64,000 nt of DNA from an uncultured Actinomycetes bacterium (GTDB lineage Bacteria; Actinomycetota; Thermoleophilia; Gaiellales; JAICJC01). This document shows, piece after piece, positions 2,592 to 64,000 of this stretch. The stretch lies in assembly GCA_963727235.1 (NCBI GenBank), contig CAVSFZ010000012.1, positions 19,408 to 83,407 on the forward strand. Reading direction: 5' to 3'. The notes beneath the pieces were generated by a model. It worked only from the letters and a program-made list of their open reading frames with translations, ran no database searches and was not told where the DNA came from. Each line of letters begins with the position of its first letter. The stretch's first letter is position 1. The translations under genes and the position numbers were made by a program.

Positions 2592-2624
2592 GTGAATAAT
2601 TGGTGCCTGGCACCAATTATTCAC
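2592..2624. repeat. 33-bp perfect palindrome, TT/AA subtype (putative REP-like element / bidirectional terminator)
   Basis: Sequence gtgaataattggtgcc-t-ggcaccaattattcac. The two 16-nt arms are exact reverse complements. It overlaps the upp stop codon (TGA, 2621-2623). Confidence 0.9.
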
Positions 2625-11687: not shown

Positions 11688-11720
11688 GTGAATAATTGGT
11701 GCCAGGCACCAATTATTCAC
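11688..11720. repeat. 33-bp perfect palindrome, TT/AA subtype
   Basis: Sequence gtgaataattggtgcc-a-ggcaccaattattcac. It is intergenic between the convergent ETF-QO and etfA genes. Confidence 0.9.
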
Positions 11721-11733
11721 GGTGAGGCTTGGG

Positions 11734-11764
11734 GTGAATAACGGTGCCTGGCACCGTTATTCAC
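11734..11764. repeat. 31-bp perfect palindrome, C/G subtype
   Basis: Sequence gtgaataacggtgcc-t-ggcaccgttattcac. It contains the etfA stop (TGA, 11761-11763). Confidence 0.9.
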
Positions 11765-12717
11765 GACCTGGCGTTGAGGGCTTCGGTGAGCTTCGGGATG
11801 ATTGTGAGGGCGTCGCCGATCACGCTCACGTCGGCGAACTCGTGGATCGGGGCGTTGGCGTCCTTGTTGATCGCAACGATCGTGCCGGCGTTCGACATGC
11901 CGACCTTGTGCTGGATCGCCCCTGAGACACCGCAGGCGATGTAGAGCTTGGGCGAGACCGTCTTGCCGGTCTGCCCCACCTGCATCGAGTACGGCACCCA
12001 ACCGGCGTCGACCACCGCCCGGGTGGCCGCCACCTCGCCGCCGATCGCCTTCGCCAGCGCCTCCACCAGTGGGACGTTCTCGGGTCCGCCCATGCCGCGT
12101 CCGACCGCCACCAGCGTCTCGGCCTCGGTGATGTCGACTCCGCCCGTCTCGGCCTGTTCACGGCCGACGATGCGAGCCTTCTGCGACCAGTCGGCGACCG
12201 TAACGGCAACCCGCTCGACCGACGCCGAGGCGCCACTCGAATCGGCCGGAGCGAAGGCGTTTGCCCGTGCCAGCACCACGCCCGGCCCGCCGGTGAACCC
12301 AGACTCGACCATGACCGTGTCGCCCAGGGCCGGCCGCGTGGCGACCAGGCTGTCGCCGTCGACGGCGACGTCGGTCGTCTCACATGCGATGCCCGTGCCC
12401 AGACGTGCCGCCAGGCCGGCGGCGACGTCGGCCGACACCACCCCGGCACCGAACAGCACACCGTCGGCTTCCCGCGCCGACGGCTCCAAGGCGTCCACGA
12501 GCGGCTGTGAAAGCCCTCCCGCCAGCGCCGCGTCGTCGGCCACCAGCACCCGCTGAGCACCGTGGCCGCCCAGCCCCGCCGCCCAGCCGTCGTCGATCCC
12601 GGAACCTGCGACGAATGCGGTGACGTCGGCTCCCAGTGTGGCGGCCCTGGCCAGCACGCCGAGGCTCTGATCGGAGAACTCGCCGTCGTCGTGATGAATG
12701 TGAACGAGCAGCTTCAC
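11761..12717 (-). CDS. etfA: electron transfer flavoprotein subunit alpha
   Basis: 318 aa with a C-terminal FAD-binding region (PKLYIACGVSGAIQHKVGM). Confidence 0.9.
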   Translation of the reverse strand: MKLLVHIHHDDGEFSDQSLGVLARAATLGADVTAFVAGSGIDDGWAAGLGGHGAQRVLVADDAALAGGLSQPLVDALEPSAREADGVLFGAGVVSADVAAGLAARLGTGIACETTDVAVDGDSLVATRPALGDTVMVESGFTGGPGVVLARANAFAPADSSGASASVERVAVTVADWSQKARIVGREQAETGGVDITEAETLVAVGRGMGGPENVPLVEALAKAIGGEVAATRAVVDAGWVPYSMQVGQTGKTVSPKLYIACGVSGAIQHKVGMSNAGTIVAINKDANAPIHEFADVSVIGDALTIIPKLTEALNARS

Positions 12718-20114: not shown

Positions 20115-20441
20115 ATGGCCGGCGGCATGCTGGCGCTGGCGGTGGCGATCGCGATCGGAGTCGATGACACGGCGGTGCTTACCGTCGCGCTGTCGGGCGC
20201 GACCAGCGCTGCGCTGGGGTGGCGCATGAGCAGGCTGCGCCCGGGCGCTCTCCAGAATCTGTACGGGTGGGCGTGTTGCATCTTCGGCGCAACCACCGCA
20301 GGCCAGGGCTACCTCACGCTCGATCTGGGCGCCACCGGAGCGCCCAGGGTGGAAGCGATGCTGTGGATCGTCGCGGGGCTGATGGTGATCGGCGGAGCCA
20401 CCGCCACGATGCTGCTCAAGCCCGTCGCAGCTCGTGAATAA
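20115..20441 (+). CDS. small hypothetical membrane protein
   Basis: ATG 20115 lies 2 nt after the MFS stop (MAGGMLALAVAIAIGV...). There are about three hydrophobic segments. The stop TAA (20439-20441) lies inside the palindrome. Confidence 0.45.
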   Translation: MAGGMLALAVAIAIGVDDTAVLTVALSGATSAALGWRMSRLRPGALQNLYGWACCIFGATTAGQGYLTLDLGATGAPRVEAMLWIVAGLMVIGGATATMLLKPVAARE

Positions 20442-20466
20442 AAGGTGCCTGGCACCTTTTATTCAC
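20434..20466. repeat. 33-bp perfect palindrome, AA/TT subtype
   Basis: Sequence gtgaataaaaggtgcc-t-ggcaccttttattcac. It contains the stop codons of both convergent flanking CDSs. Confidence 0.9.
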
Positions 20467-20855: not shown

Positions 20856-20886
20856 ATCTCTAGGACGCGCGCCGAACCCCGTCGGT

Positions 20887-21732
20887 TCACACCGCTGGGT
20901 AATCGTAGAAGCCCTGGCCCGACTTTCGGCCCAGCCGACCGGCTTGCACGTAGCTGCGCAGCAGCGGGCAGGGGCGGTATTTGTCATCGCCGAGACCCTC
21001 GTGCAGCACCTCCATGATCGCCAGCACCGTGTCCAGGCCGATCAGGTCGGCCAACGTCAAAGGCCCCATCGGATGGTTCATTCCGAGCTTCATCACCGTG
21101 TCGATCGAGTCGCGATCGCCGACGCCCTCCATCAGGCAATAGACCGCCTCGTTGATCATCGGAACCAGGATCCGGTTGGAGATGAACCCCGGGTAGTCAT
21201 GGGCTTCGGCCACGGTCTTGCCCATCCGCTCGGCCGCCGAACGCACCGTCGCCGCGGTCTCGTCGCTCGTCTCCAAGCCACGGATCAGCTCGACCAGCGG
21301 CATCAACGGCACCGGGTTCATGAAGTGCATGCCGACGACCCGCTGAGGCCGCGAGGTCACGGAGGCCAGCTTGGTGATCGGAATCGAGCTGGTGTTGGAA
21401 GCCAGCACCGCTCCCTCGCCCAGCGCCTCATCGATCTGCTTGAAGATCTGCAGCTTGAGATCGACGCTCTCGGTGGCCGCCTCGATCGCCAGATCCGCGT
21501 TCACCGGCGCCGACGCCGATGCGATCCGCTCGACCGCGGCAGCCGCCACGTCACTCTCGACCTTGCCTTTCTCCACCAGCTTGGCCAGCGACTGTTGGAT
21601 GCCCGATCGAGCCCGCTCGAGCTGCACGTCGGATACGTCCACCAAGGTCACGTCGAAACCGGCGACGGCAGCCACCTGGGCGATCCCCGACCCCATCTGG
21701 CCGGCACCCACGACACAGATCCGCTGGGTCAC
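20887..21732 (-). CDS. hbd: 3-hydroxybutyryl-CoA dehydrogenase
   Basis: 281 aa with an NAD fold ([15 protein letters not shown]) and a HAD-family C-terminal domain. Confidence 0.9.
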
Positions 21733-27327: not shown

Positions 27328-28490
27328 GCTCGACCATGCCCGACAGCCGAGGCCGGTTCGGAGAGTTTGGGGGCCGGTTCGTGCCCGAGACGGTGATGGG
27401 CGCTCTGGACGAGCTCACCGCCGGATACGAGGCGGCTCGCGCCGACCCCGCGTTCGCGGCCGACATCGAGCAGCTCGCCCGCGACTACGTCGGCCGGCCG
27501 TCACCGCTGTACGAGGCCGAGCGGTTCGCCGAGGGCACCGGCGCCCGCATCCTGCTCAAGCGAGAAGATCTCAATCACACCGGCGCGCACAAGATCAACA
27601 ACGCGGTTGGTCAGGCCCTGCTGGCCGTGCGCCTGGGAAAGCGCCGGGTCGTGGCCGAGACCGGAGCGGGCCAGCACGGCGTCGCCGCGGCCACCGTGTG
27701 TGCTCGCTTCGGGCTGGAGTGCCATGTGTTCATGGGCGAGGAGGACATCCGCCGTCAGCATCCCAACGTGGTTCGGATGGGCATGCTGGGGGCCGAGGTG
27801 GTGCCGGTAACGGCGGGCTCGGGGACGCTCAAGGACGCGATGAACGAGGCCATCCGCGACTGGATCGCAAACGTGGAGACCACCCACTATCTGATCGGAT
27901 CGGCGGCCGGCCCCCACCCCTATCCGATGCTCGTCCGCGACCTCCAGGCGGTGATCGGCCGAGAGGCTCGAGAGCAAACGCTGGAGCGGGCAGGGCGTCT
28001 GCCCGACGCGGTCGTGGCATGCGTCGGCGGCGGCTCGAACGCCATCGGTCTGTTTCACCCGTTCATCGACGATCGCTCGGTGCGGCTGCTGGGCGCCGAA
28101 GCCGGCGGCGACGAGCGCGGGCATGCGGCCAGTCTCAGCCTCGGCCGGGTGTCGGTGCTGCACGGCTCCAAGAGCTATGTGCTGGCCGACGAGGACGGCC
28201 AGGTGGTGGAGTCGCACTCGATCTCGGCCGGCCTCGACTACCCCGGCGTCGGCCCCGAGCACTCGTGGCTGAAATCGACGGGGCGGGCGAGCTACGAGCC
28301 GGTCTCCGATGCCGAAGCGCTGACGGCGTTTCACCGCCTGTGCCGGCTGGAGGGCATCATCCCCGCGCTGGAGTCGGCCCACGCCCTGGCGCTGGCCCAA
28401 CGCGCGGCCCGACCGGGTGAGCTGATCGTGGTCGGCCTCTCCGGGCGCGGCGACAAGGACGTGGACGCCGTGGAGGCACTGCAACCGTGA
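27324..28490 (+). CDS. trpB: tryptophan synthase beta chain
   Basis: ATGA overlap with trpF and an AAGGAGG Shine-Dalgarno at 27310-27316. Motifs are [13 protein letters not shown] and [11 protein letters not shown] (PLP Lys). Confidence 0.95.
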
Positions 28491-29227
28491 ACATCTCCAC
28501 CCCAGCGCTGGTGATCTATCTGATGGCCGACACGGACACCGTCGAGCTCGCCCGAGCGGCGGTGGCGGGCGGTGCGACCGCGATCGAGGTGGGGATTCCC
28601 TACTCCGACCCGCTGGCCGACGGGCCCACCATCCAGCGCGCAGCCAACCGCTCGCTGGCCGCCGGGATGACGACACGCAAGGCGCTCGAGCTGATCGGTG
28701 AGATCCGCAGCCACGTCGACGTGCCGATCGTGCCGATGACCTACGCCAGCCCGGTGATGGCACTCGGCGAGGGAGAGTTCTGCCGAGCCGCGGCAGCCGC
28801 CGGCGCCGACGGCGTGATCGTGCCCGACATTCCATCTGACGAAGCCGGGCCGCTGTCGCAGGCCTGTCGCGAGCATGGGCTCGACCTGGTACCGCTGCTC
28901 GCCCCCACCAGCAGCGATCAGCGGATCGAGCTGGCCTGCCGGAATGCCGGCGGTTTCGTGTACCTGGTGAGCGTGACGGGCACCACCGGAGCCCGCGAAC
29001 AGCTGGGCGATCGAGTGGCAGGCCTGATCGAGCGCACCCGCGCCCACACCGCGCTGCCGCTGCTGGTCGGATTTGGCATCTCCACACCGGCGCACGCCCA
29101 GGCGGCACTGGCGGCCGGGGCCGACGGAGTCGTGATCGGCTCGCGTGCGATCGACGTGGCCGAGCAGGGCGGCGCGAGCGCGTTGGACGCGTTCGTGGCC
29201 GATGTGGCACGCGCCCTCGGCGAGTAG
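28487..29227 (+). CDS. trpA: tryptophan synthase alpha chain
   Basis: GTGA overlap with trpB. Motifs are [18 protein letters not shown] and GFGISTP. Confidence 0.9.
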
Positions 29228-29264: not shown

Positions 29265-29942
29265 ATGCACGTTTTGGTGGTGGAGGACGATCAGGCGCTC
29301 GCGCGCATTCTGGTGAAGTCGATCGAATCGGCGGGTCACACCGCCGAGGTCAGCCACGACGGAGAGCAGGGCCTGGAACTGGCCCGCAGCGGGCGCCACG
29401 ACGCGGTCATCCTCGACCTGATGCTGCCACGGCTTTCGGGCGTCGAGCTGTGCCGGCGGCTGCGGGCAGAGGGCCGTACCGTTCCGGTGCTGATGCTGAC
29501 CGCCCGCTCCGCCGTGTCCGAGCGGATCGAGGGCCTCGACGCCGGCGCTGACGACTACCTGGTCAAGCCCTTCTCGCTGGGAGAGCTCCAGGCCCGCCTG
29601 CGAGCACTGAGCCGGCGAGGCAGCGGCCCGCAGCCCGATGTGATCGAGGCCGGGGAGCTCCAGCTCGACGTCAACGGCCGCGAGGTGCGCGTCGGCGATG
29701 ATCTGGTGGAGCTGACCGGAACCGAGTTCGCGCTGCTCGAGTATCTGATGCGAAACCAGGGCTCGGTGCTCAGTCGCGACCAGCTGCGGCTGGAGGTGTG
29801 GGGCGATGGATTCGAGCCCTCCTCGAACGTCGTGGATATCTACATCCACTACGTGCGCCGCAAGCTCAAGGCTGCCGGGCTCCAACGCGACCCGATCCGC
29901 ACCGTACGCGGCCTCGGGTATGCATTTCGCAAGCCGGAATAG
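29265..29942 (+). CDS. OmpR-family response regulator
   Basis: 225 aa with a receiver domain (VLVVEDD...DAVILDLMLP...DDYLVKPF) and a winged-helix output domain (RTVRGLGYAF). Confidence 0.9.
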   Translation: MHVLVVEDDQALARILVKSIESAGHTAEVSHDGEQGLELARSGRHDAVILDLMLPRLSGVELCRRLRAEGRTVPVLMLTARSAVSERIEGLDAGADDYLVKPFSLGELQARLRALSRRGSGPQPDVIEAGELQLDVNGREVRVGDDLVELTGTEFALLEYLMRNQGSVLSRDQLRLEVWGDGFEPSSNVVDIYIHYVRRKLKAAGLQRDPIRTVRGLGYAFRKPE

Positions 29943-31229
29943 ATGTTCTACCGCGCCCGCTTTCGCCTGACCGCATGGTTCGTCGTCGTCATGGCTGCAT
30001 TCGTGACCGTGCTCGGCGGGGCGGTCTACTACGTCGTCCAGGATCAGCTGCGGAAGCAGGTGGACGATGGCGTTCGCAAAACCGCATTTCGCGCCTCGCG
30101 GGATGTGCACAACGATTACATCAACTCAGGAAGGTCAACCGCGATCGACTATTCGGCCGATGCCGACATCCAAGAGCTCGCCGACGGAGGCCTGTACAAG
30201 CTGACGGTGGTACCACCGCCCTACGGCTCGGGGCTGCTGGGGCGAAACGCCGAGGAGGCCGGCCTGCCGTACGCACAAGGCGTGCTGGCGGCGCTTCAGA
30301 ACGGCCGGGACATGAGCTCGGTGCACGTCGGCCAGGGATCCGTGCGGATCTACTCGGTGCCGGTGGCCGACTCCCAAGGCGTGTTCGCGGTGGTGCAGGT
30401 GGCCCGCTCCACCCTCCCCGAGCAGCAGTCGCTGAACAAGCTCTTGATCGTGCTGCTGGTGGGCGGAGTGGCCAGCGTGCTGGTGGCCGCAGTCGGCGGC
30501 TGGTTCCTGGCCGGAAAAGCGCTCGCACCGGTGCGCGAGGCATTCGATCGCCAGCACGCGTTCGTGGGGGACGCGTCGCATGAGCTGCGCACCCCGCTGG
30601 CCGTGATCCGCGCCAACGCCGAGTACCTGCAGGCCAGCCAGCCGGACTCGGTCGAGATCGCCGACATCGTCAGCGAGACCGACCGGCTGTCCGCCCTGGT
30701 CGATTCGCTGCTGGCGCTGGCCCGCGGCGGGCGCGGCGACCGCCCCCAGCCGGACGTGTTCGACCTGGGGTCGGTGGTGGAGCAGTCGGTCGAGGCCATG
30801 ACCGCCCTGGCAGCCGACAAGTCGGTCGACCTGCGGGTCGACGCTGCCCCCGGGCTGCACATCGAGGGCGATCGCGAGCAGATCCGCCAGCTGGTGGTGA
30901 TCCTGGTGGACAACGCGCTGCGCTACACCCCCTCCGGCGGATCGGTGGCCGTGATCGTCGGTAAAGCGTCGAACGACGCCGCGCTGGAGGTGCGAGACAC
31001 CGGGATCGGCATACCCCGCGAGGCCCAGGATCACGTGTTCGAGCGCTTCTACCGTGCCGACGAGGCCCGCAACCGCGACTCCGGCGGAGCCGGCCTGGGA
31101 CTGGCGATCGCCAAGCAGCTGGTCGAAGATCACGACGGCCGCATCTCGCTCGAATCGGTGCCCGGCGAAGGCTCCACCTTCACCGTGCGGCTGCCGCTGG
31201 CCAGCGCCATAGCCGACGCCAAAGCCTGA
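29943..31229 (+). CDS. membrane sensor histidine kinase (HAMP/HisKA/HATPase)
   Basis: 428 aa with two TM segments and the H-box [16 protein letters not shown]. The N and G boxes are [15 protein letters not shown] and GGAGLGLAI. Confidence 0.9.
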
Positions 31230-31230
31230 G

Positions 31231-31263
31231 GTGAATAAAAGGTGCCAGGCACCTTTTATTCAC
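31231..31263. repeat. 33-bp perfect palindrome, AA/TT subtype
   Basis: Sequence gtgaataaaaggtgcc-a-ggcaccttttattcac. It begins 2 nt after the kinase stop (TGA 31227-31229) and ends 27 nt upstream of the MCC-beta start. Confidence 0.9.
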
Positions 31264-31290
31264 AACCTGGGCATCATCTACGCTGCGCCG

Positions 31291-32874
31291 GTGCCCCGGA
31301 TCGCGTCGACCATCGACTCCCACGGTGACGAGTACCGTCGCAACCGCGAGCGGATGGCGGAGCTCACGGCCGACCTGAAAGCGGCGCTCGACCGGGTACG
31401 CGACGGCGGCGGCGCCGATGCCATGGATCGCCACCGCGCACGCGGCAAGCTTCCTGTGCGAGAGCGGATCGAGCAGCTGATCGATCCCGGCGCGGCCTTC
31501 CTCGAGCTGTCACCGCTGGCCGCCCACGAGATGTACGACGGCCAGGCCCCGGGCGCGGGCATCGTGTGCGGGATCGGTCCGGTCAGCGGGCGAACCTGCG
31601 TGATCGTTGCCAACGACGCCACCGTCAAAGGCGGCAGCTACTTCCCGATGACGGTGAAGAAGCACCTGCGGGCGCAGGAGATCGCCGAGCAGAACCGGCT
31701 GCCGTGCATCTATCTGGTCGATTCGGGCGGTGCCAACCTGCCGTTTCAAGCCGAGGTGTTCCCCGATCGCGAACATTTCGGCCGGATCTTCTACAACCAG
31801 GCTCAGATGTCGGCGGCGGGCATCCCGCAGATCGCGGTGGTGATGGGCTCGTGCACCGCAGGCGGCGCCTACGTCCCGGCGATGAGCGACGAGACGGTGA
31901 TCGTGAAGGGCACCGGCACCATCTTCCTGGGCGGCCCGCCGCTGGTGAAGGCGGCCACCGGCGAGGATGTGACCGCCGAGGAGTTGGGCGGCGGCGAGCT
32001 GCACGCGCGCCACAGCGGGGTGGTCGATCACCTGGCGGATGACGACCCCTCGGCGCTGCGCACCGCCCGTGAGATCGTCGCCAACCTGGGACCGGCAGTG
32101 ACCCCGGCCTGGCCTACCGGGACGGCTCGCGACCCCGAGCTGGACGCGGGCGAGCTGCTCGGCCTGGCCCCGATCGACAGTCGCCGCCAGGGCGACGTGC
32201 GCGAGGTCATCGGCCGGATCGTGGACGGGTCACGGCTGCACGAGTTCAAACGGCTCTACGGTGAGACGCTGGTGTGCGGATTCGCCAGCCTGCACGGCCA
32301 CCCGGTCGCGATCGTGGCATCCAACGGCATCCTGTTCTCGGAGTCGGCGCTGAAAGGCGCGCACTTCGTCGAGTTGGCATGCAAACGCCGGATTCCACTG
32401 GTGTTCCTGCAGAACATCACCGGCTTCATGGTCGGACGGGAATACGAGGCCGGCGGCATCGCCAAGGACGGGGCCAAGCTGGTGACCGCGGTGGCCTGCG
32501 CGCAGGTGCCCAAGTTCACGGTCGTGATCGGCGGCTCGTTCGGCGCCGGAAACTACGCCATGTGCGGCCGTGCCTATTCGCCCCGACAGCTGTGGATGTG
32601 GCCCAACGCGCGCATCTCGGTGATGGGCGGGGCCCAGGCGGCGCGGGTGCTGTCGACCGTCCGCGGCGAACTCGGCGACGCCGAGCGGGAGCAGTTCGAA
32701 GCGCCGATTGTGGAACGATACGAGCGTGAGGGCAGTCCCTACTACTCCACAGCGCGGCTGTGGGACGACGGGGTAATCGACCCGCGTGACACACGCCGGG
32801 TGCTCGCGCTGGGCCTCGAGGCCGCCCGCTGCGCACCGGTACCCGAGACGACCTTCGGGGTGTTTCGGATGTGA
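31291..32874 (+). CDS. methylcrotonyl-CoA carboxylase beta (carboxyltransferase) subunit, liuB-like
   Basis: The acyl-CoA carboxyltransferase fold is evident ([32 protein letters not shown]). I chose the GTG start at 31291 ([22 protein letters not shown]) by N-terminal similarity to MCC-beta. The track start at 31231 lies inside the palindrome. MCC versus PCC is assigned from operon context. Confidence 0.8.
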
Positions 32875-33650
32875 GCACTGTGACCATGCACACCCAAGGG
32901 CCGGTGACGACCCTGACCCTCAGCCGCCCCGAGGTGCGAAATGCGCTGGGGCCCGAGATGATCATGGAGCTCACCCACCTGTTCCACGCGCTGGCGCTCG
33001 ACGAGAGCCGGGTGATCGTGGTCACCGGGGAGGGCGACGCCTTCTGCGCCGGCGCCGACCTGGAGTGGATGAAGGCCAGCCGCACGCTCAGTGACGACAA
33101 GAACGTGGCGGACGCGGCCACCGCCCGCACCATGTGGGAGACGATCGACTCCTGCCCCAAGCCGGTGATCGCGCGGGTCAACGGGCCGGCGCTGGGAGGC
33201 GGGTCGGGGCTGGTGGCCTGCGCCGACGTGGCGATCGCCGTCGACTCCGCCGTACTCGGGTTCACCGAGGCCCGAGTGGGGCTGATCCCGGCCACGATCT
33301 CGCCTTACGTACTGCGAAAGATCGGCCCTGGACACACCCGCGCCCTGTTCGTCTCCGGCCGCCGGTTCTCCGCCGAGGAGGCCGCCAGGATCGGGCTCGT
33401 CCACCGGGTCGTGGCCGCCGCCGACCTGGACGCGGCGGTCACCGAGACTGCCGACGAGCTGCTGGCCTGCAGCCCGGTTGCGATCGCCGAATCCAAACGG
33501 CTGGTGCGAGACGCCACCGCGCAGCTGGCGCTTGCCGACCTGCCGCTACGGCTGGCGGCGGTACGGGCCGCCCCGGAAGCCCAGGAAGGGCTGGCGGCGT
33601 TCCTCGAGAAGAAACAACCGGGATGGGTAGTGCGATCGACCGAGTCCTGA
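32871..33650 (+). CDS. enoyl-CoA hydratase (methylglutaconyl-CoA hydratase by context, liuC-like)
   Basis: 259 aa crotonase fold ([27 protein letters not shown]). It has a GTGA overlap with the upstream gene. Confidence 0.75.
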
Positions 33651-35359
33651 TCGCCAATCGCGGCGAGGTCGCCGTGCGCGTGATCCGGGCCTGCCGCGAG
33701 CTGGGGATCGAAGCCGTCGCAGTCCACCTCCCCGGAGAGGCCGGCGACCTGCACGTGCAGTTGGCTGATGCCGGTGCGGAGATTCCCTCGTTCCTCGACC
33801 CCGACGCGATTCTGGGCGCCGCGGAGGCACTCGCCGCAGACGCCATCCACCCGGGGTACGGCTATCTGGCCGAGAGCCCCGACTTCGCCGAGCGCGTCGC
33901 CGGTGCCCGCATCGCGTGGGTCGGGCCGCCGGCGGCGGCGATGCGCGCGAGTGGAGACAAGCTGGCCGCGCGACGGCTGGCCGAAGCCGCGGGAGTGCCG
34001 GTTGTCCCCGGGTATGCGGGCATCGATCTGACCGACGAAACCCTCGCGGCCGAGGCCGAACGAGTCGGATTCCCGCTGCTGGTCAAAGCCGCCGGCGGCG
34101 GAGGGGGACGCGGGATCCGCCGGGTCGCGGGGGCCGCCGACCTGCCCGCGGCGCTGGAGGCGGCCCGGCGCGAGGCCAAGGCGGGCTTCGACGACGAGCG
34201 GGTGTACCTGGAGCGGGAGCTCGACGCCGCCCGCCACGTGGAGATCCAGCTGCTGGCCGACCGCCACGGCAACGTGATCCACCTGGGCGAGCGCGACTGC
34301 TCGGCGCAGCGGCGCCACCAGAAGATCGTGGAGGAGGCTCCCTCCCCCGCCGTCGACGGCGAGTTGCGAGCGGCCCTCGGCGACGCCGCCGTGGCGATCG
34401 CGCGCGCGGCCGGCTACGAGAGCGCCGGCACCGCCGAGTTCCTGCTCTTGCCCGACGACAGCTGGTACTTCCTGGAACTGAACGCCCGGTTGCAGGTGGA
34501 GCATCCCGTGTCGGAGCTGGTGACCGGCATCGACCTGGTACGAGCCCAGCTCGAGATCGCCCGCGGTGAGCGCCTGGAGTGGAGCCAGGCCGACATCGCG
34601 CCCACCGGCCACTCGATCGAATGCCGGCTGTACGCGGAGGATCCGGCGGCCGGGTTCGTGCCCTCACCCGGCAGGCTGGTGCGGTTCGAGATCCCGCCGT
34701 GGCCGGGTGTGCGCATCGACACCGGCGTGCGGGTGGGCGATCACGTCGGCATCCACCACGATCCGTTGCTCGCCAAGGTGATCGCCCACGCCGAAGATCG
34801 CGACGCCTGTATCGAGCGCATGGCCGCGGTGCTGGCCGAGACGGTCGTGCTCGGGGTCTCCACCAACCTGGGGTTCCTGCGCTGGCTGCTGATCCGGCCC
34901 GAGTTCATGAGCGGCGATGTCGACACCGGCTTCGTCGATCGACGCTGGAGCCCAGATCTGGTACCCGAGCTGCCCGCCGAGGTCGCCCGCTCGGCCCGGG
35001 CGGCGATGCTGCCGGCCGGACCGTGGCGCGACTACGGCACGGCTGGCACCACCGCGGTGACGGCGGCCGGCGGGTTCGTGCAGCACGATGGGTGGCAGTA
35101 CACACTCGAAGACGACGACGCTCCCTCAGGTTCGTCCGGCGTGGCCGGGTCGCTGCAGGCGCCGATGCCCGGCTCGGTGCTGCGTGTCTCGGTCGCCGTC
35201 GGTGACCCCGTCACCGAAGGGCAGGAGCTGGTCGTGATCGAGGCCATGAAGATGGAGGTGGCCGTGGCCGCTCCCCGCGACGGCGTCGTGCAGGCGGTCA
35301 ACACTGCCGTCGGAGCCCAGGTGACCCGTGCCCAGACTCTTGTCGAGCTGGGTGAATAA
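33623..35359 (+). CDS. methylcrotonyl-CoA carboxylase alpha (biotin carboxylase + BCCP) subunit, liuD-like
   Basis: Starts at ATG 33623 ([23 protein letters not shown]). It has an ATP-grasp region and the biotinylation motif IEAMKMEV near the C-terminus. The stop TAA (35357-35359) lies inside the palindrome. Confidence 0.85.
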   Translation: MGSAIDRVLIANRGEVAVRVIRACRELGIEAVAVHLPGEAGDLHVQLADAGAEIPSFLDPDAILGAAEALAADAIHPGYGYLAESPDFAERVAGARIAWVGPPAAAMRASGDKLAARRLAEAAGVPVVPGYAGIDLTDETLAAEAERVGFPLLVKAAGGGGGRGIRRVAGAADLPAALEAARREAKAGFDDERVYLERELDAARHVEIQLLADRHGNVIHLGERDCSAQRRHQKIVEEAPSPAVDGELRAALGDAAVAIARAAGYESAGTAEFLLLPDDSWYFLELNARLQVEHPVSELVTGIDLVRAQLEIARGERLEWSQADIAPTGHSIECRLYAEDPAAGFVPSPGRLVRFEIPPWPGVRIDTGVRVGDHVGIHHDPLLAKVIAHAEDRDACIERMAAVLAETVVLGVSTNLGFLRWLLIRPEFMSGDVDTGFVDRRWSPDLVPELPAEVARSARAAMLPAGPWRDYGTAGTTAVTAAGGFVQHDGWQYTLEDDDAPSGSSGVAGSLQAPMPGSVLRVSVAVGDPVTEGQELVVIEAMKMEVAVAAPRDGVVQAVNTAVGAQVTRAQTLVELGE

Positions 35360-35382
35360 CGGTGCCTGGCACCGTTATTCAC
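35352..35382. repeat. 31-bp perfect palindrome, C/G subtype
   Basis: Sequence gtgaataacggtgcc-t-ggcaccgttattcac. It contains the MCC-alpha stop and the most likely HMG-CoA lyase GTG start (35362). Confidence 0.9.
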
Positions 35383-36214
35383 CGAGACGTCACGGTTGTG
35401 GAGGTGGGGCCGAGGGACGGCCTTCAGAACGAGCCGGTGATCGTGCCCACGGCGGACAAGATCACGCTGGTCGACCGGCTGTCGGCAGCCGGCCTGCCGG
35501 TGGTCGAGGTGACGTCGTTCGTCTCGCCCGCGCTGGTGCCCCAGCTCGCCGACGCGGACCAGGTGCTTGCCGGCATCACCCGCCTCCCGGGGGTGCGCTA
35601 TCCGGTGCTGGTGCCGAACGCCCGGGGTCTTGACCGCGCCCGAGCTGCGGGCGCCACCGAGATCGCCGTGTTCACCGCTGCATCCGACGCTTTCGCCGAG
35701 GCCAACATCGGAGTCACCATCGAGCGATCGCTCGAGATCTACCGCTCAGTGGTGGCGGAGGCGGTCGCGGCCGGCATGTGGGTGCGCGGATACGTGTCCA
35801 CCGCACTCGGCTGTCCGTATCAGGGCCCGGTCGAGCCGACGGCCGTGGCCGAGGTCACGGAGGCACTCGCCGGCATGGGCTGCTCCGAGATCTCGATCGG
35901 AGACACCATCGGCGTCGGCACCCCGGACACGGTGGCCACGATGCTGGAGGTCGTGCTGGCACGGATCGGATCCAACCGGATCGCGCTGCACCTGCACGAC
36001 ACCGGGGGCAGGGCGCTGGCCAACGTCGCCGTCGGCCTCGATCACGGCGTGCGCGTCTTCGATTCGTCAGTGGCAGGCTTGGGCGGCTGCCCGTTCGCCC
36101 CCGGAGCCCCTGGAAACTTGGCGACGGAGGCGCTGGTCGAACTGCTCCACGGCCGCGGGCTGCGCACCGGCGTCGATCTCGACGCGGTGCGCGCAGCCGG
36201 CGCGGCGCTTACCG

Positions 36215-36231
<17 letters not shown>
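35362..36231 (+). CDS. hydroxymethylglutaryl-CoA lyase, liuE-like
   Basis: 289 aa with VEVGPRDGLQNEP near the N-terminus and a TIM-barrel HMGL motif (ISIGDTIGVGTP, LHLHDTGG). GTG 35362 leaves 13 residues before EVGPRDG. The alternative GTG 35398 leaves none. Confidence 0.85.
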
Positions 36232-36685
<454 letters not shown>

Positions 36686-36733
36686 CGATGGAGAACCTTT
36701 CGTGGTGGGTGGAATTGGGCGCAGGGTAGCCGG

Positions 36734-38113
36734 TCACACCGGTGACCCCGCCGGCTTCGGCAACGTCGAGATGGCGGCCAGCGCCCGCTCGATCTCGTCC
36801 TCCGGCAGCTCGAAATCCTCCAGCCTGCCGTGCAGATAGGCGTCGTAGGCCGACATGTCGAAGTGGCCGTGGCCGGACAGGTTGAACAGGATCACCTGTT
36901 CCACTCCCGCCTCGTCGGCGCGCTTGGCGGCGTCGATCGCCCCCTTGATCGCATGCGACGACTCGGGCGCCGGGATGATCGCCTCCGAGCGGGCGAACGT
37001 GAGGGCCGACTCGAACACGTCCAGCTGACCGTAGGCCTCTGCCCGCAACAGGCCGTCGAGCATCAGCTGGGACACGATCGGCGCCACCCCGTGATAGCGC
37101 AGGCCGCCGGCATGGATGCCCGGCGGGACGAAGTCGTGGCCGAGCGTATGCATCGCCACCAGCGGAGTCAGCTGCGCGGTGTCGCCGAAGTCGTAGCTGT
37201 ACGGCCCCCGGGTGAGCGTGGGACATGCCGACGGCTCGCAGGCGATCACCTCGATCTCGGCCCCGGCGATCTTTTGGCCGATGAACGGCAGCGCCAGGCC
37301 GCCGAAGTTCGACCCGCCCCCGACGCAGCCGACCACCACGTCGACACCGCTCTCGCCGGCCAGCGCGAGCTGTTTGTGCGCCTCCTGGCCGATCACCGTC
37401 TGGTGCAGCAGGACGTGGTTGAGGACCGACCCGAGTGAGTAGCTGGTGTCCTCGCGGGTGGCTGCGTCCTCGACCGCCTCGGAGATGGCGATCCCGAGGC
37501 TGCCGGGGGAGTCGGGACTTGCCTCGAGCATCTGGCGCCCGGCGTTGGTGTCCGGCGACGGACTGGGAACGACACTCGCCCCCCACGCCTCCATCATCAT
37601 CCGCCGGTACGGCTTCTGGTCGTAGGAGACGCGCACCATGTAGACCTTGCACTCCAGCCCGAACAGCTGCGATGCGAGCGCCATCGAGCTGCCCCACTGG
37701 CCGGCACCGGTCTCGGTGGCGATGCGGGTTCGCCCCGCCTTGGCGTTGTAGTACGCCTGGGCAACTGCGGTGTTGGGCTTGTGGGAACCCGCCGGCGAGA
37801 CGCTCTCGTTCTTGTAGTAGATGCGCGAACGGGTGCCGATGGCGCGCTCCAGGCGATGCGCCCGATGCAGCGGGGTGGGCCGCCACAGCCGCAGCACATC
37901 GATGACCTCGTCCGGGATCGGGATCTCGCGGTCGGTCGACACCTCCTGCAGGATCAGGTCCATCGGAAACAGGGGCGCCAGATCGTCGGGGCCGATCGGC
38001 TCTCCGGTGCCCGGGTGCAGCACCGGCTGAGGGGCGGTGGGCGCGTCGGCCAGCACGTTGTACCAGCTCCGCGGAATCTCACTCTCCGGCAACAGAATCT
38101 TGGAATCGGCCAT
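36734..38113 (-). CDS. TrpB-like PLP-dependent enzyme (tryptophan synthase beta, TrpB2 type)
   Basis: The sequence reads ...[17 protein letters not shown]...[18 protein letters not shown]...[10 protein letters not shown]. It is longer than, and clearly distinct from, the operon trpB. ATG 38113 is preceded by GGGGAGTGAGGAAC. Confidence 0.8.
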
Positions 38114-38194
38114 GTTCCTCACTCCCCTGTCTCGATAGCTCAACCCGTGGTGTCGTTAGGATGCACGGCTGATTGTTCCCGACAACGAGGCGAC

Positions 38195-39682: not shown

Positions 39683-40812
39683 GCTACGACCTCTCCGACG
39701 AGCACCGTCTCTTCCAGGGGACGGTTCGCGAGTTCGCAGAGGGGGCGATCGGGCCGGTCGCCGAAGAGCTCGACCGCACGGGGCGGTTTCCGCTGGAGCT
39801 GGTGGCGGCCGCCGCCGAGCTTGGCTTGATGGGCATCCCCATCCCCGCCGAGTGGGGCGGTGCGGGCGCCGACACGCTGTCGTATGCGATCGCGATCGAG
39901 GAGCTGGCTCGAGTCGACCAGTCGTTTGCGATCACGGTCGCCGCTCACACCTCGCTCGGTACCACCCCGATCCTGCGCTTCGGCAGTGACGACCAGCGAC
40001 GGCGGTGGCTGCCGCCGCTGGCTTCGGGAGAGCGGCTCGCCGCATTCGGACTGACGGAGTCCGGAGCCGGCTCCGACGCCGGAGCGACGCGCACGACCGC
40101 CCGGCTGGAACAGGGCGGGTGGGTGATCGACGGCTCCAAGATGTTCATCACCAACGCGGGCGTCGAGATCTCCGGGCTGGTCACGATCACGGCACGCACC
40201 GGCGCCGACGAGATCTCGAACATCGTGATCGAAAACGGCACCGAGGGGTACACCCAGTCCGCGCCGTTGCACAAGATGGGGTGGCGCTCGTCGGACACCC
40301 GCGAGCTCGGCTTCGCCGGCTGTCGCGTGCCCGAGGGCAACCTGTTGGGGAGTCGGGGGCAAGGATTCCACCAGTTCCTGGAGATCCTCGACGGGGGCCG
40401 CATCTCGGTGGCCGCCCTGGGCTTGGGCTGCGCCCAGGGCGCGTTCGAGCTGGCGGCGGCGTATGCGCGCACGCGGGAGCAGTTCGGAAAGCCGATCGCG
40501 AGCTTCCAGGCGATCAGGTTCAAGCTGGCCGACATGGCCACCGAGATCGAGGCCGCGCGCAACCTGGTGTACAAGGCGGCGTGGCTGAAGGACGAGGGCC
40601 GGCCGTTCGCCCAGACAGCGGCGATGGCCAAGCTCTACACCGGCGAGCTGTCGCGGCGGGTGTGCAACGAGGCGGTCCAGATCCACGGCGGGTACGGGTT
40701 CATGGACGAATACGCGGTCAGCCGCTTCTATCGTGACCAGAAGGTGCTCGAGATCGGCGAAGGCACCAACGAGGTGCAACGGCTCGTGATTGCCCGCGGG
40801 CTGGGCCTGTGA
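39676..40812 (+). CDS. acyl-CoA dehydrogenase (short/branched-chain; possible isovaleryl-CoA dehydrogenase)
   Basis: 378 aa with GLTESGAGSDAG, AAMAKLYTGE, IHGGYGFMDEY and EIGEGTNEVQRLVIAR. Confidence 0.85.
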   Translation: MLSYDLSDEHRLFQGTVREFAEGAIGPVAEELDRTGRFPLELVAAAAELGLMGIPIPAEWGGAGADTLSYAIAIEELARVDQSFAITVAAHTSLGTTPILRFGSDDQRRRWLPPLASGERLAAFGLTESGAGSDAGATRTTARLEQGGWVIDGSKMFITNAGVEISGLVTITARTGADEISNIVIENGTEGYTQSAPLHKMGWRSSDTRELGFAGCRVPEGNLLGSRGQGFHQFLEILDGGRISVAALGLGCAQGAFELAAAYARTREQFGKPIASFQAIRFKLADMATEIEAARNLVYKAAWLKDEGRPFAQTAAMAKLYTGELSRRVCNEAVQIHGGYGFMDEYAVSRFYRDQKVLEIGEGTNEVQRLVIARGLGL

Positions 40813-41342
40813 GCCACGTCGACTGGGCGATCGCAGGCGGGGTGGCGCTGGCGATCGCGATCCTGCTGGGCACGATCGTGAACCGGATGGTGCCGCCGGG
40901 GAGCCCTCGGCGGACGGTCGAGGACAGCGCGCTTCTGCTTGGCTGCGCCGCACCCGGGCTGGCCGTGTTCGGCTACTACCTGCATCACCGGCTGCTGGCC
41001 GGCGTCGCCATCATCGCGGTCGCCTACGGCGGGTTTTTCCTGATCCGGATGCGCCAGCTGCGCCGCGCCAATCGCGATGGGGTGCGGCGACTGCTGGGGC
41101 TCGATCGCGATGCGACCTTCGGCGAGGTGATGTCACAGGTGGAGAAGATCGAGCCGCACCCGCTGACCACCACCAGCCGGCTCGTGCTCGCGCTGGCCGC
41201 GGCCATGGTGGTGATCGTGGGCTACGCCCTCGACCGCTTCGACACCGCGCTGATCGGCCTGGCGATCGGAGTGGCCGAGAGCACCGCCCGCCCCGCCTTC
41301 CGCCGCGCCCTGGCAACCAAGGTCCGCGACATCGGCCACTGA
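40809..41342 (+). CDS. hypothetical membrane protein
   Basis: 177 aa with about four hydrophobic segments. It has a 4-nt overlap with the upstream ACAD gene. The stop TGA (41340-41342) lies in the palindrome arm. Confidence 0.5.
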   Translation: MSHVDWAIAGGVALAIAILLGTIVNRMVPPGSPRRTVEDSALLLGCAAPGLAVFGYYLHHRLLAGVAIIAVAYGGFFLIRMRQLRRANRDGVRRLLGLDRDATFGEVMSQVEKIEPHPLTTTSRLVLALAAAMVVIVGYALDRFDTALIGLAIGVAESTARPAFRRALATKVRDIGH

Positions 41343-41381
41343 ATAAAAGGTGCCAGGCACCTTTTATTCACCGTTATTCAC
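41339..41381. repeat. 33-bp palindrome (AA/TT subtype, first base G->C) plus an abutting 13-nt right-arm fragment of the C/G subtype
   Basis: Sequence ctgaataaaaggtgcc-a-ggcaccttttattcac (41339-41371). The fragment caccgttattcac (41369-41381) overlaps the last three bases of the full copy. Confidence 0.85.
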
Positions 41382-42584
41382 CTAATGCATTCGAGTTACG
41401 GGGTAGCCGGCGTCGCGGACGAGCTCGACGATTGAGGCGGCGTGGGATTCGTCGCGGGTTTCCAGCGTCAGCTCGATGCCGGTCTCGGCCACAGCCACGT
41501 CGACACTCTCGCGGTGGTGGGAGATCAACAGGATGTTGACGTGGTTTTGGGCGACCACCTGGAGCAGGTGCATCAGCTCGCCCGGGCGATCGGTCAGCCG
41601 AGTGCGGATCACGAGGTAGCGCCCCGCCACGGTCAGGCCGAAGCGGATCACCTGCATCAGCAGCGGCGTGTCGATGTTCCCGCCCGACAGCACCGCCACC
41701 GCCCGCTTGGCCGAGACCTTGCCGTTGACCAGCGCCGCCAGCGCGACCGCACCGGCGCCTTCGACAACCGTCTTCTCGCGCTCCAGCAGGTGCACGATCA
41801 CGCGAGCGATCTCGGCGTCGGTGACAGTCACGACGTCGTCGACGAGCTCGCGGATCAGGCCGAATGTGATCTCGCCCGGACGTTTTACCGCAATCCCGTC
41901 GGCGATCGTCTGCGTCTGGGGCACCGGAGTGATCGCGCCGTGCTCGATCGAGCTCACATACGGCGCACAGCCGGCCGCCTCCACTCCAATCACCCGGATC
42001 TCCGGCCGCTGAGCCTTGATCGCGCAGGCGATCCCCGACAGCAGCCCACCGCCGCCGAGGGGCACAACCACCGCGTCGACGTCGGGCGCGTCCTCCAGAA
42101 TCTCCAGGCCGATGGTTCCCTGACCCGCGATCACGACCTCATCGTCGAACGGGTGGATCAGCGTCATCCCGGTGCGCGATGCCTCCTGGCGGGCCGCCTC
42201 GACCGACTCGTCCACATCCAGACCGACCAGGTGCACAGTCGCGCCGTAGCCCTGGGTCGCACCCACCTTGGCCAAGGAGGCCGCCTCGGGCATGAACACC
42301 GAGGCCGGCACACCGGCACGGTGGGCGGCCCACGCCACCGCCTGGGCGTGGTTTCCGGCAGACGGCGCCACCACCCCTGCGACCCGCTCCGAATCGCTCA
42401 GAGACTGGATCTTCGTGTACGCCCCGCGCACCTTGAACGCCCCGGTCTTCTGCTGGTTCTCGTGCTTCAGCAGCACCTCGCAACCGGCCAGGCGCGAGAA
42501 CGTCTCCGATCGCAGCAGCGGAGTCCTGTGCACCACGTCGCGAAGGCCCGCGGCCGCCGCCTGGATATGTTCGAGATCCACCAT
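41382..42584 (-). CDS. ilvA: threonine ammonia-lyase (short form with one ACT-like domain)
   Basis: 400 aa with KHENQQKTGAFKVRGA (PLP Lys), GNHAQAVA and a C-terminal regulatory domain. Confidence 0.85.
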   Translation of the reverse strand: MVDLEHIQAAAAGLRDVVHRTPLLRSETFSRLAGCEVLLKHENQQKTGAFKVRGAYTKIQSLSDSERVAGVVAPSAGNHAQAVAWAAHRAGVPASVFMPEAASLAKVGATQGYGATVHLVGLDVDESVEAARQEASRTGMTLIHPFDDEVVIAGQGTIGLEILEDAPDVDAVVVPLGGGGLLSGIACAIKAQRPEIRVIGVEAAGCAPYVSSIEHGAITPVPQTQTIADGIAVKRPGEITFGLIRELVDDVVTVTDAEIARVIVHLLEREKTVVEGAGAVALAALVNGKVSAKRAVAVLSGGNIDTPLLMQVIRFGLTVAGRYLVIRTRLTDRPGELMHLLQVVAQNHVNILLISHHRESVDVAVAETGIELTLETRDESHAASIVELVRDAGYPVTRMH

Positions 42585-42627
42585 CGAAGTGACCGCGAAC
42601 CCTACCCGCTTGGACTAACGTTGGGCG

Positions 42628-63372: not shown

Positions 63373-63761
63373 TTCCGGCGGACGTGCGCGACGCAATCGT
63401 CGCCCATGCCCGCGCCGGACTCCCGAACGAGGCGTGCGGGATCCTGGCCGGAGTGGATGGGCGCGTGGAGCGCTTCTTCCCGGCTGAGTCGGACGAGCCC
63501 AGCCCCTATTACTACCGGATCGAGTCGCGCGACCAGATCCGGATCATGAACGAGATCGACGACGCCGGACTGGATCTGATCGGGATCTATCACTCGCACG
63601 TCTCTTCGCCGGCGTATCCCAGCCGCACCGATGCCGAACAGGCATTCTGGCCCGACGCGGTGTATGTGATTGTCTCCCTGGCGGGCGCCGAGGCCGACGT
63701 CCGGGGCTATCGAATCGCCGACATGCTCGCCACCGAAGAGCCGCTCGAGATCAGTGAATAA
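63366..63761 (+). CDS. mec: JAMM/MPN+ metalloprotease (Mec-like)
   Basis: 131 aa with NEACG and the JAMM motif YHSHVSSPAYPSRTD. It overlaps cysM by 7 nt. The stop TAA (63759-63761) lies in the palindrome arm. Confidence 0.8.
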   Translation: MVIPADVRDAIVAHARAGLPNEACGILAGVDGRVERFFPAESDEPSPYYYRIESRDQIRIMNEIDDAGLDLIGIYHSHVSSPAYPSRTDAEQAFWPDAVYVIVSLAGAEADVRGYRIADMLATEEPLEISE

Positions 63762-63786
63762 TTGGTGCCAGGCACCAATTATTCAT
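63754..63786. repeat. 33-bp palindrome, TT/AA subtype (last base C->T)
   Basis: Sequence gtgaataattggtgcc-a-ggcaccaattattcat. It is the first copy of a terminal cluster. Confidence 0.9.
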
Positions 63787-63813
63787 CTGGACACCTCAGG
63801 TTATGCACCGCAG

Positions 63814-63846
63814 GTGAATAACCAGTGCCTGGCAGTTTTTATGCAC
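63814..63846. repeat. degenerate 33-bp copy of the palindrome
   Basis: Sequence gtgaataaccagtgcc-t-ggcagtttttatgcac. It keeps the arm ends and the CCTGG centre, but the arms no longer pair fully. Confidence 0.7.
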
Positions 63847-63851
63847 CGCAG

Positions 63852-63874
63852 GTGAATAAAAAGTTGCCTGGCAC
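63852..63874. repeat. truncated copy (left arm plus centre only)
   Basis: Sequence gtgaataaaaagttgcc-t-ggcac. The right arm is replaced by unrelated sequence. Confidence 0.6.
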
Positions 63875-63914
63875 TCTCACGCCCAGGCACGACAAACAGC
63901 CTGATGGGTAGCGG

Positions 63915-63945
63915 GTGAATAACGGTGCCTGGCACCGTTATTCAT
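63915..63945. repeat. 31-bp palindrome, C/G subtype (last base C->T)
   Basis: Sequence gtgaataacggtgcc-t-ggcaccgttattcat. Confidence 0.9.
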
Positions 63946-64000
63946 GCTTGCGCCTCACGGACATCCACATCGGGTGTGACCGGAGTTACGGGACGGCCTT

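Follow-up and report, generated by a model that had tools for sequence, protein, structure and literature searches.

What becomes of two tightly spaced genes of an operon when a stable inverted repeat lies exactly between them, so that one gene stops and the next one starts inside it? This question is raised by a 64,000-nt stretch of DNA (hereafter the window; contig CAVSFZ010000012.1, positions 19,408 to 83,407 of the forward strand) from an uncultured actinomycete of the Gaiellales, in which a perfect palindrome occupies the junction between the MCC-alpha and HMG-CoA lyase genes of a liu-like operon. An earlier note, made from the sequence of the window, proposed that this palindrome provides the stop of the first gene and probably the start of the second, and that it represents a regulatory use of the repeat. 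Our analysis makes it probable that the palindrome is a copy of a repetitive extragenic palindrome (REP) linked to a REP-associated tyrosine transposase (RAYT), that it came to lie on an ancestral overlap of the two genes, and that it is a tolerated insertion in which the coupling of the two genes was kept in a hairpin-gated form.

From 5' to 3' the junction reads GAG CTG GGT GAA TAA CG GTG CCT GGC ACC GTT ATT CAC CGA GAC GTC and continues ACG GTT GTG GAG GTG GGG CCG AGG GAC GGC. The palindrome, to which no strand is assigned, spans positions 35351..35383 and represents the 1-nt-spacer ('C') subtype of its family (GGTGAATAACGGTGCC T GGCACCGTTATTCACC), with 16-nt arms (35351-35366 and 35368-35383) that are fully complementary around the central T35367. 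The interval 35352-35382 delimited previously corresponds to the family unit GTGAATAAC...GTTATTCAC, and the junction copy gains one extra base pair, G35351-C35383. Folded as RNA, the 33-mer is predicted to form, at -24.4 kcal/mol (z = -7.8 versus shuffled sequences), a 15-bp stem (35351-65 paired with 35369-83) closed by a 3-nt loop, and the same stem dominates when 81 nt of context are folded. The reading frame of MCC-alpha ends, as had been proposed, at the TAA of the left arm (35357..35359, plus strand). The same arm carries a TGA in another frame (35353..35355, plus strand), which closes the lyase frame upstream and bars any start further 5', and the GGTGCC core contains a GTG (35362..35364, plus strand), paired with 35370-35372 in the stem, which is the most probable start of the lyase. 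With this probable start, the spacing between the MCC-alpha stop and the lyase start is +2 nt. A search of the whole window with Rfam covariance models at the gathering threshold gave no matches.

We assign the lyase start to GTG 35362 with good confidence, and on this point the sequence comparisons agree with the earlier note. From this codon 13 residues (MPGTVIHRDVTVV) precede the conserved EVGPRDGLQNE, whereas from the next candidate, GTG 35398, there is the initiator alone, as can be read directly in the sequence. In 115 of 120 homologues EVGPRDG is preceded by 8-12 residues that include a conserved VTVV, the nearest palindrome-free relatives have an N-terminus of the form M/V-S-x-R-D-V-T-V-V, and the homology with two lyases of solved structure, 2CW6 and 1YDN, extends back to query residue 8-9 (RDVTVVEVG vs KRVKIVEVG), upstream of the automatically called start, which is residue 13. 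The alignment of orthologues, suggested previously as a check on GTG 35398, thus favours an upstream start, as does the structure-based alignment. Because the lyase start aligns upstream of RDVTVV, and GTG 35362 is the only canonical start codon between the in-frame TGA 35353 and the R-D-V-T-V-V codons, it is the sole canonical candidate; a start further 5' is precluded because TGA 35353-35355 closes the frame. Weak and indirect support comes also from the spacer of the palindrome: the window and its five syntenic relatives described below all keep at this junction the 1-nt-spacer subtype, the only observed spacer length that places the core GTG in frame with RDVTVV.

The database calls suggest a different start. 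The database copy of the window lyase (P0001) is 277 aa long and called from GTG 35398, and three of its four close relatives are called equally short or shorter (P0004 from the equivalent of 35398 and P0003 from the preceding codon), while P0002 is called from the palindrome GTG as MPGTVIHPDVTVVEVGPRDG. If the lyase indeed started at GTG 35398 (or 35404), the palindrome would be an untranslated spacer on the lyase side and would give the MCC-alpha stop only. The relative L084 offers some support for this view, since there MCC-alpha continues as far as a TAG overlapping the equivalent GTG (TAGTG), itself a coupling-type junction. However, a start at 35398 would remove the RDVTVV strand, which is conserved in the 115 homologues and aligned to the solved structures from residue 8; in L081 the equivalent codon is GTC and not a start codon; and in every relative the frame is open and conserved back to the core GTG. 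The predicted pairing with the 16S rRNA also speaks against it. It had been claimed that no Shine-Dalgarno (SD) sequence is visible at the junction, and GGAGG is indeed absent, but a weak SD-like GGGTGA (35350..35355, plus strand) is found in the left arm, within the stem and 6 nt upstream of GTG 35362. Assuming the canonical 16S tail (the organism's own 16S gene lies outside the window), GGGTGA pairs at -8.8 kcal/mol, compared with just -3.7 kcal/mol for the 22 nt upstream of GTG 35398 and -5.6 +/- 3.0 kcal/mol for random 22-mers. We regard a start at 35398 as quite unlikely, in which case four of the five called lyases lose a conserved strand, and the true start is hidden in the repeat.

The palindrome is not confined to this junction. 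It belongs to a family with the consensus (G)TGAATAA-x-GGTGCC-W-GGCACC-x'-TTATTCA(C), whose half-site TGAATAA-N(0-4)-GGTGCC has 18 matches in the window, forming nine perfect palindromes against 0.00 expected (centres at 2608, 11704, 11749, 20450, 31247, 35367, 41355, 63770 and 63930). By their spacers these belong to the subtypes C, AA and TT, and they are distributed beside unrelated genes at a density of approximately one per 7 kb. An exact scan retrieved 89 stretches from metagenome contigs, mostly from soil, and none from viral contigs; together with the window and the five syntenic relatives this gives 115 copies in 95 sequences, in which decayed copies are under-sampled, as the metagenome search demanded perfect matches to both the outer and the inner module. 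Although no constraint was placed on the spacers, those of the two arms are complementary to each other in 101 of the 115 copies (CC/GG in 69, C/G in 13, TT/AA in 7, AA/TT in 7, and also AT, CA/TG and AC/GT). At the centre, 112 copies have A or T, and the base preceding the unit (position -1) is G in 142 of 228 cases, A in 44, C in 41 and T in one; the conservation ends at (G)TGA, with nothing conserved further out. T is almost absent before TGAATAA (1/228), as are G and C at the centre (3/115). Adjacent copies tend to be inverted with respect to each other, with centre A followed by centre T in 13 of 19 pairs.

With its perfect dyad symmetry and two conserved modules in each half-site, the palindrome could in principle be an operator bound by a dimeric regulator of the operon, e.g. 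the adjacent response regulator, and one copy does lie just upstream of MCC-beta, beside a two-component system. This explanation is scarcely credible, as the copies occur across unrelated genes and in many contigs, they are found at the 3' ends of genes and not at promoters, their spacers covary as base pairs, which a protein-binding site would not require, and the family flanks a RAYT gene. Among other candidates, a sigma-54 promoter (TGGCAC-N5-TTGC), integron attC, dif and parS were ruled out by sequence, spacing and copy number.

The palindrome family is a REP/RAYT system. In two metagenome contigs (L143, positions 3383-4015, and L107, positions 309-941) a gene encoding a 210-aa protein is bracketed by two of the palindromes approximately 690 nt apart, and a third contig contains a partial copy at its end (L147, 50-577, minus strand; aligned over residues 1-178) with a palindrome on one side only. 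The protein has the HUH motif NHYHLL and the tyrosine motif RYIALNPV, it matches the Pfam family Y1_Tnp (PF01797, E = 1.7e-10) and the NCBIfam model NF047646 'REP-associated tyrosine transposase' (89.9 bits, cutoff 80), and it contains a C-terminal helix-turn-helix (HTH) domain; a search of PDB sequences with it gave a weak HTH match only. An identical protein is on record from a Gaiellales metagenome-assembled genome (MAG), and homologues are labelled 'REP element-mobilizing transposase RayT' by JGI. The RAYT gene takes its own stop codon from the TAA of the downstream REP arm (CGT GAA TAA). Its address between M20 peptidase and metH genes is common to L143 and L178 (the latter an 830-kb contig from the ENA series to which the relatives of the window also belong); in L178 (10001-10447) the RAYT is apparently frameshifted and truncated and the 3' REPs are degenerate. 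In other respects also the family behaves as REPs do: the unit is short (31-33 bp, within the 20-40 bp usual for REPs) and present in many dispersed copies, these are located at gene ends between co-directional or convergent genes and many of them overlap the last codons of the gene, and the inverted pairs mentioned above, which include the pairs around the RAYT gene, correspond to the BIME/REPIN arrangement. A RAYT-like gene (39% identity) was found in a MAG (L004, 8880-9557) between the lyase and a convergent cyclophilin gene, which are neighbours in the window also, the lyase junction of this MAG being palindrome-free; at 63.6 bits the gene remains under the cutoff of NF047646, and no flanking palindromes were detected.

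How the family is placed relative to genes was examined in 107 coding-like open reading frames (ORFs) that are oriented towards a copy and end no more than 250 nt from it, as defined by a simple heuristic based on ORFs and third-position GC content in short contigs. In 61 of them (57%) the stop codon is inside the arm, 31 at TGA and 30 at TAA, and a further 24 end 1-6 nt before the arm. Copies flanked by two incoming (convergent) genes number 28, those with an incoming gene on one side and none on the other 44, those between co-directional genes 7, and those between divergent genes 0. Under looser criteria, the frame that stays open across the palindrome is rarer than the other two, with 13-15 cases compared with 41 that use TGA and 52 that use TAA. 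With respect to gene direction the centre base is unbiased (19 A : 20 T). In the window itself the ORFs ending in an arm comprise upp, an ORF with a JAMM domain, and two unannotated ORFs (20463-21041 and 40737-41342); in the uracil phosphoribosyltransferase the Pfam match extends to the last residue, with the stop in the REP arm. One contig with a REP followed by an ORF of 281 codons (L101) was considered as a second lyase junction and rejected, as the ORF is not a lyase.

A preference for 3' ends and for spaces between convergent genes, never divergent ones, is typical of terminators as well as of REPs, and the stem is stable. One may therefore ask whether the hairpin acts mainly on the transcript, as a terminator or attenuator or as a barrier to 3' exonucleases, so that the mRNA of the MCC subunits outlasts or outnumbers that of the lyase, whose expression would be lowered or driven separately, like in the case of REP/BIME elements in E. 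coli operons. Stabilization of mRNA by REPs and stalling of ribosomes by REPs within 15 nt of a stop have been documented (summarized in PMC12306157 and PMC3733652). On the other hand, the stem is followed by CGAGACGUCACGG with no T-run, i.e. the GC-rich stem lacks the U-tract of an intrinsic terminator, and a scan of positions 31000-37000 revealed no terminator-like or promoter-like site at or near the palindrome; there is also no room for a promoter before the lyase. Moreover, another copy (31231-31263) lies 27 nt before MCC-beta, and full termination at every copy would silence the operon. An action mainly on the transcript appears unlikely to us, and it is compatible with the coupling favoured here, not exclusive of it.

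The favoured reading, i.e. a REP copy on an ancestral gene overlap, draws on comparisons with relatives. In those without the palindrome, MCC-alpha is found directly 5' of the lyase gene and the two genes overlap, by GTGA in L002, L003, L010, L024, L175 and L176, by ATGA in L005 and L018, and by the 8-nt ATGGCTGA in L001 and L177. Because palindrome-free relatives have a 4-nt stop/start overlap, we take the tight coupling to be ancestral. The junction of L176 reads GAC GAC GG GTGA GCGAGCGGGACGTCACGG and that of the window GAG CTG G GTGA ATAACGGTGCCTGGCACCGTTATTCAC CGAGACGTCACGG, and it follows from this alignment that the element lies exactly on the ancestral GTGA and that the R-D-V-T codons were kept; the filled site is longer than the empty one by net 22 nt. 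In a comparison of the window lyase with genome contigs, the best of the matches listed (Gaiellales and other MAGs) has 66% identity, and among the matches listed the palindrome is present in 0 of 80 loci. Best hits at 66-74% identity, together with the names of their sources, point to a Gaiellales-like member of the Actinomycetota as the host. By contrast with the palindrome-free relatives, the five syntenic relatives L081-L085 (92-94% lyase protein identity) all possess the element at the junction. In several of the ENA contigs (L082-L085) genes such as MCC-alpha and trpA are split, which suggests indel errors of long reads, and conclusions about frames in these contigs need care. At this junction the palindrome has 4 variable columns out of 33, similar to the flanking coding DNA, and no compensatory changes.

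At two other orthologous REP sites the same genomes differ in subtype. The REP between the histidine kinase and MCC-beta genes is of the AA type in the window and L084 and of the C type in L081, L082 and L085; the REP corresponding to the one centred at 41355 is AA in the window and L084, a C+C doublet in L081, TAA/TA in L082, TT in L083 and TA/AA in L085. In both cases the two arms have changed together, and the base at the centre switches between A and T as well. Such turnover of subtypes at fixed sites points to rapid replacement, to conversion or to templating of one arm by the other, and not to point mutation.

Taken together, these comparisons allow us to propose the following scenario. 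The family would have been maintained and propagated in a lineage of Gaiellales-like actinobacteria together with its cognate RAYT, and in the ancestor of the window organism and its close relatives one REP copy probably came to lie exactly on the MCC-alpha/lyase junction, where it would have retained the tight spacing (+2 nt) yet buried the start in the stem. Because the outer arm carries TGA and TAA in two frames and the core a GTG, MCC-alpha ends at the arm TAA and the lyase most probably starts at the core GTG. Transcription of the operon would read through the element. As long as the upstream gene is not translated, the start codon and the SD-like bases would be paired in the stem, so that independent initiation should be poor and coupling to the translation of MCC-alpha is naturally expected. 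With the TAA in the A site, the channel of the ribosome would hold the whole left arm, so the stem would be open at the moment of MCC-alpha termination, and the same ribosome, or one loading at that time, could initiate at the GTG 2 nt downstream. The lyase would thus most likely be translated via termination-reinitiation and/or RNA unfolding, and the ancestral coupling would persist in a hairpin-gated form, a mechanism that we consider plausible on the predicted fold. As in known coupled pairs, the genes are co-directional with stop and start a few nucleotides apart (given the probable start), and in the predicted fold the downstream start lies in a structure traversed by the upstream ORF. 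Other effects of REPs, such as a barrier to 3' exonucleases or stalling of ribosomes when the REP is within 15 nt of the stop, may add to this.

Several points weigh against this scenario. The insertion event itself is not exactly reconstructable, and the MCC-alpha frame needs an extra 1-nt change relative to the ancestral GTGA. In L084 the TAA of the left arm is replaced by CAG, three pairs are lost (leaving a stem of -14.3 kcal/mol) and MCC-alpha extends to the TAG overlapping the codon equivalent to 35398, which shows that the junction can do without the stop and some of the stem. That transcription reads through, that reinitiation occurs and where the N-terminus of the lyase really lies are all inferred from the sequence. 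In a study of synthetic operons cited in the review PMC12548453, structure just after the upstream stop correlated negatively with coupling, and the hairpin could reduce the output of the lyase instead of merely gating it, so that its net effect on the MCC:lyase ratio could go either way. With regard to the origin of the element, tblastn searches with the RAYT against the window (64 kb) and L081-L085 (5 x 20 kb) gave no match, the link between REP and RAYT rests on other contigs carrying the same palindrome, and the canonical 5' foot of REPs, GT[AG]G, is replaced here by (G)TGA.

Could the hairpin-embedded stop and start nevertheless be a selected device that keeps the synthesis of the lyase strictly proportional to the translation of MCC-alpha, and is retained for this reason? 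The element is present at the junction in all six related sequences, always with the frame-preserving 1-nt spacer while the two other orthologous sites switch subtype, and the start and the SD-like bases are sequestered. Yet the coupling is older than the element, the retention of the spacer is explained by the frame requirement of the lyase and not by selection on the hairpin, the palindrome is as variable as its flanks and shows no compensatory changes, and L084 does without the TAA and three pairs. We find this explanation doubtful. For related reasons, namely the generic habit of the REPs to abut stop codons, the older GTGA/ATGA coupling, a variability like that of the flanks and the decay of the arm in L084, we do not follow the earlier note in ascribing to the repeat a special regulatory use. 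The most economical account is that of a tolerated insertion which preserves expression and the existing coupling.

Comparison with known systems places the element closest to the REPtrons of E. coli, Pseudomonas and Stenotrophomonas (REP with RAYT/TnpA-REP; PMC2817692, PMC6006769), which likewise feature high-copy short palindromes at the 3' ends of genes, several subtypes, frequent inverted doublets, and a Y1 HUH gene that is flanked by the same palindromes and keeps a conserved chromosomal place, as is typical of RAYTs. They differ in that our host is a Gaiellales-like actinobacterium, that the palindromes of the present family are perfect, with a 1-nt centre and no bulge, and that GT[AG]G is absent, the ends GTGA...TCAC resembling the 'double-foot' type. 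A C-terminal HTH like that of the RAYT has been reported for subclass 2.1, for which PMC6006769 found no REPs; the likeness concerns the HTH alone. The surveys of RAYTs and REPs consulted here cover Proteobacteria, Cyanobacteria, Bacteroidetes, Clostridia and others, with 'Actinobacteria' absent from their main texts, a literature search for RAYT, REPIN and Actinobacteria found no paper, and a search for the literal palindrome strings returned unrelated matches only. The supply of stop codons by REP termini has already been described for the GTAG-tagged REPs (Di Nocera et al. 2013, PMC3733652), which overlap coding regions with their termini and prefer sites between unidirectional and convergent ORFs. 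In the present family, unlike the GTAG REPs, the arm presents TGA in one frame and TAA in another, on either strand, the majority of adjacent genes use them, and in the liu-like operon the core also supplies (most probably) the start codon. The perfect palindromes, the two stops per arm, the HTH-bearing RAYT and the start codon donated downstream are thus the variant features of this system.

In its mode of action the junction element resembles two further systems, of which it is a member of neither. The MIRUs of mycobacteria (PMC12548453) are also dispersed repeats that preserve translational coupling at intra-operon junctions, but they consist of 40-100-bp direct tandem units with a small ORF overlapping both neighbours, whereas here we find a single palindrome without a tandem unit or an ORF of its own, and with an origin linked to a Y1 transposase. 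In the classical cases of coupling by RNA unfolding or scanning (phage f1 VII/IX, MS2 coat/lysis, rpmI-rplT; PMC12548453) the upstream ORF runs through a stem in which the downstream start is silenced, and stop and start are likewise a few nucleotides apart; the difference is that here the silencing stem would come ready-made from a mobile repeat, and that the coupling is predicted. When an E. coli REP lies within 15 nt of a stop codon, ribosomes stall and the upstream gene is expressed at a lower level (Liang, Rudd & Deutscher 2015, summarized in PMC12306157). Those REPs are similar in that the stem is located directly at the stop of the upstream gene, and differ in that here the stop is inside the stem and the downstream gene starts inside the stem too.

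If the family is considered as a whole, one may speculate that in this high-GC genome it is targeted via the RAYT to stop codons or the 3' ends of genes, and acts as a portable gene-end module combining stop codons in two frames on both strands with a hairpin; we put this joint reading forward tentatively, as a possibility that we do not favour. Were it true, a module placed at an operon junction would turn a GTGA overlap into an obligatory site of hairpin-gated reinitiation, the GTG and GGGTGA of the repeat itself would act as start and SD sequence, and the spread of REPs would directly alter where genes end and start and would determine expression ratios inside operons throughout the lineage. 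Irrespective of this possibility, many gene ends and some starts in the lineage lie inside REP arms, hence annotation and comparisons of protein lengths must consider the repeat. The junction also provides a natural before/after pair (GTGA overlap vs a stem of -24 kcal/mol) for models of RNA unfolding and scanning, and the family represents a REP/RAYT system in an uncultured soil Gaiellales-like actinobacterial lineage, with rapid subtype turnover at fixed sites, which may shed light on how REPs locate or shape the ends of genes.

The operon and its surroundings were delineated with Pfam and by comparison with the relatives. Upstream are trpA (28487-29227), the response regulator (29265-29942) and the histidine kinase (29943-31229, stop TGA 31227-9), followed, all on the plus strand, by MCC-beta (carboxyltransferase, 31291..32874), enoyl-CoA hydratase (32871..33650, starting at GTG 32871, which overlaps the MCC-beta stop, or at ATG 32886), MCC-alpha (biotin carboxylase and biotinyl domain, 33623..35359, 578 aa from ATG 33623) and HMG-CoA lyase (35362..36231, 289 aa from GTG 35362; the automatic call from 35398 gives 277 aa); a cyclophilin (PPIase) gene identified by Pfam is convergent with the lyase. 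At the remaining junctions the genes of the operon overlap or nearly do so (by GTGA at 32871-4 and by 28 nt at 33623-33650), and few genes of the region have a clear SD sequence. The start of MCC-beta is taken as GTG 31291, at the equivalent of which the calls of the relatives begin. The apparent extension of this ORF to GTG 31231 falls inside a REP, and in the relatives there is a stop between the REP and the gene; this is the second spot where the repeat can mislead the prediction of starts. A megablast search of the operon against plasmids returned distant carboxyltransferase matches only.

Apart from the junction copy, the window contains the following REPs. A TT-type copy at 2592..2624 gives with its right arm the TGA (2621-2623, minus strand) of the uracil phosphoribosyltransferase gene, and a doublet (TT with centre A, then C with centre T) at 11688..11765 lies downstream of the ETF-QO gene. 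Copies of the AA type are found at 20434..20466, where the minus-strand ORF 20463-21041 takes its TGA from the right arm, at 31231..31263, between the histidine kinase stop and MCC-beta, and at 41339..41382, together with an adjacent half copy (41367-82), where the left arm gives the TGA (41340-2) of the ORF 40737-41342 and a convergent gene ends 11 nt past the element. A BIME-like cluster within 190 nt at the edge of the window (63754..63946) comprises a TT-type copy, two degenerate copies (about 63812-63875) and a C-type copy; TAA 63759-61 of the TT-type copy at 63754 ends the JAMM-domain ORF 63366-63761.

The site 20434-20466 provides an additional example of variation. In a JGI contig that is 84-90% identical to the window (L173, 520-740) the singlet of the window is represented by a doublet, in which a C-type REP and a TT-type REP are separated by approximately 150 nt, itself an inverted repeat, and both flanks are identical to those of the window. 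Among the other genes of the window, three PLP-dependent enzymes of the PALP family are encoded within 26 kb (36734-38143, 41385-42614 and 62416-63372), one of which is threonine dehydratase-like with an ACT domain, its gene converging on a REP. At 62135-63761 a CysO-like small protein, a CysM-like PLP enzyme (not on record in our look-up) and a JAMM/Mec+-like protein are encoded consecutively with overlapping junctions, directly beside the REP cluster at 63.7-63.9 kb. The last of these ORFs ends with AGT GAA TAA in the REP arm, i.e. it has the same xGT-GAA-TAA ending as MCC-alpha and the RAYT gene.

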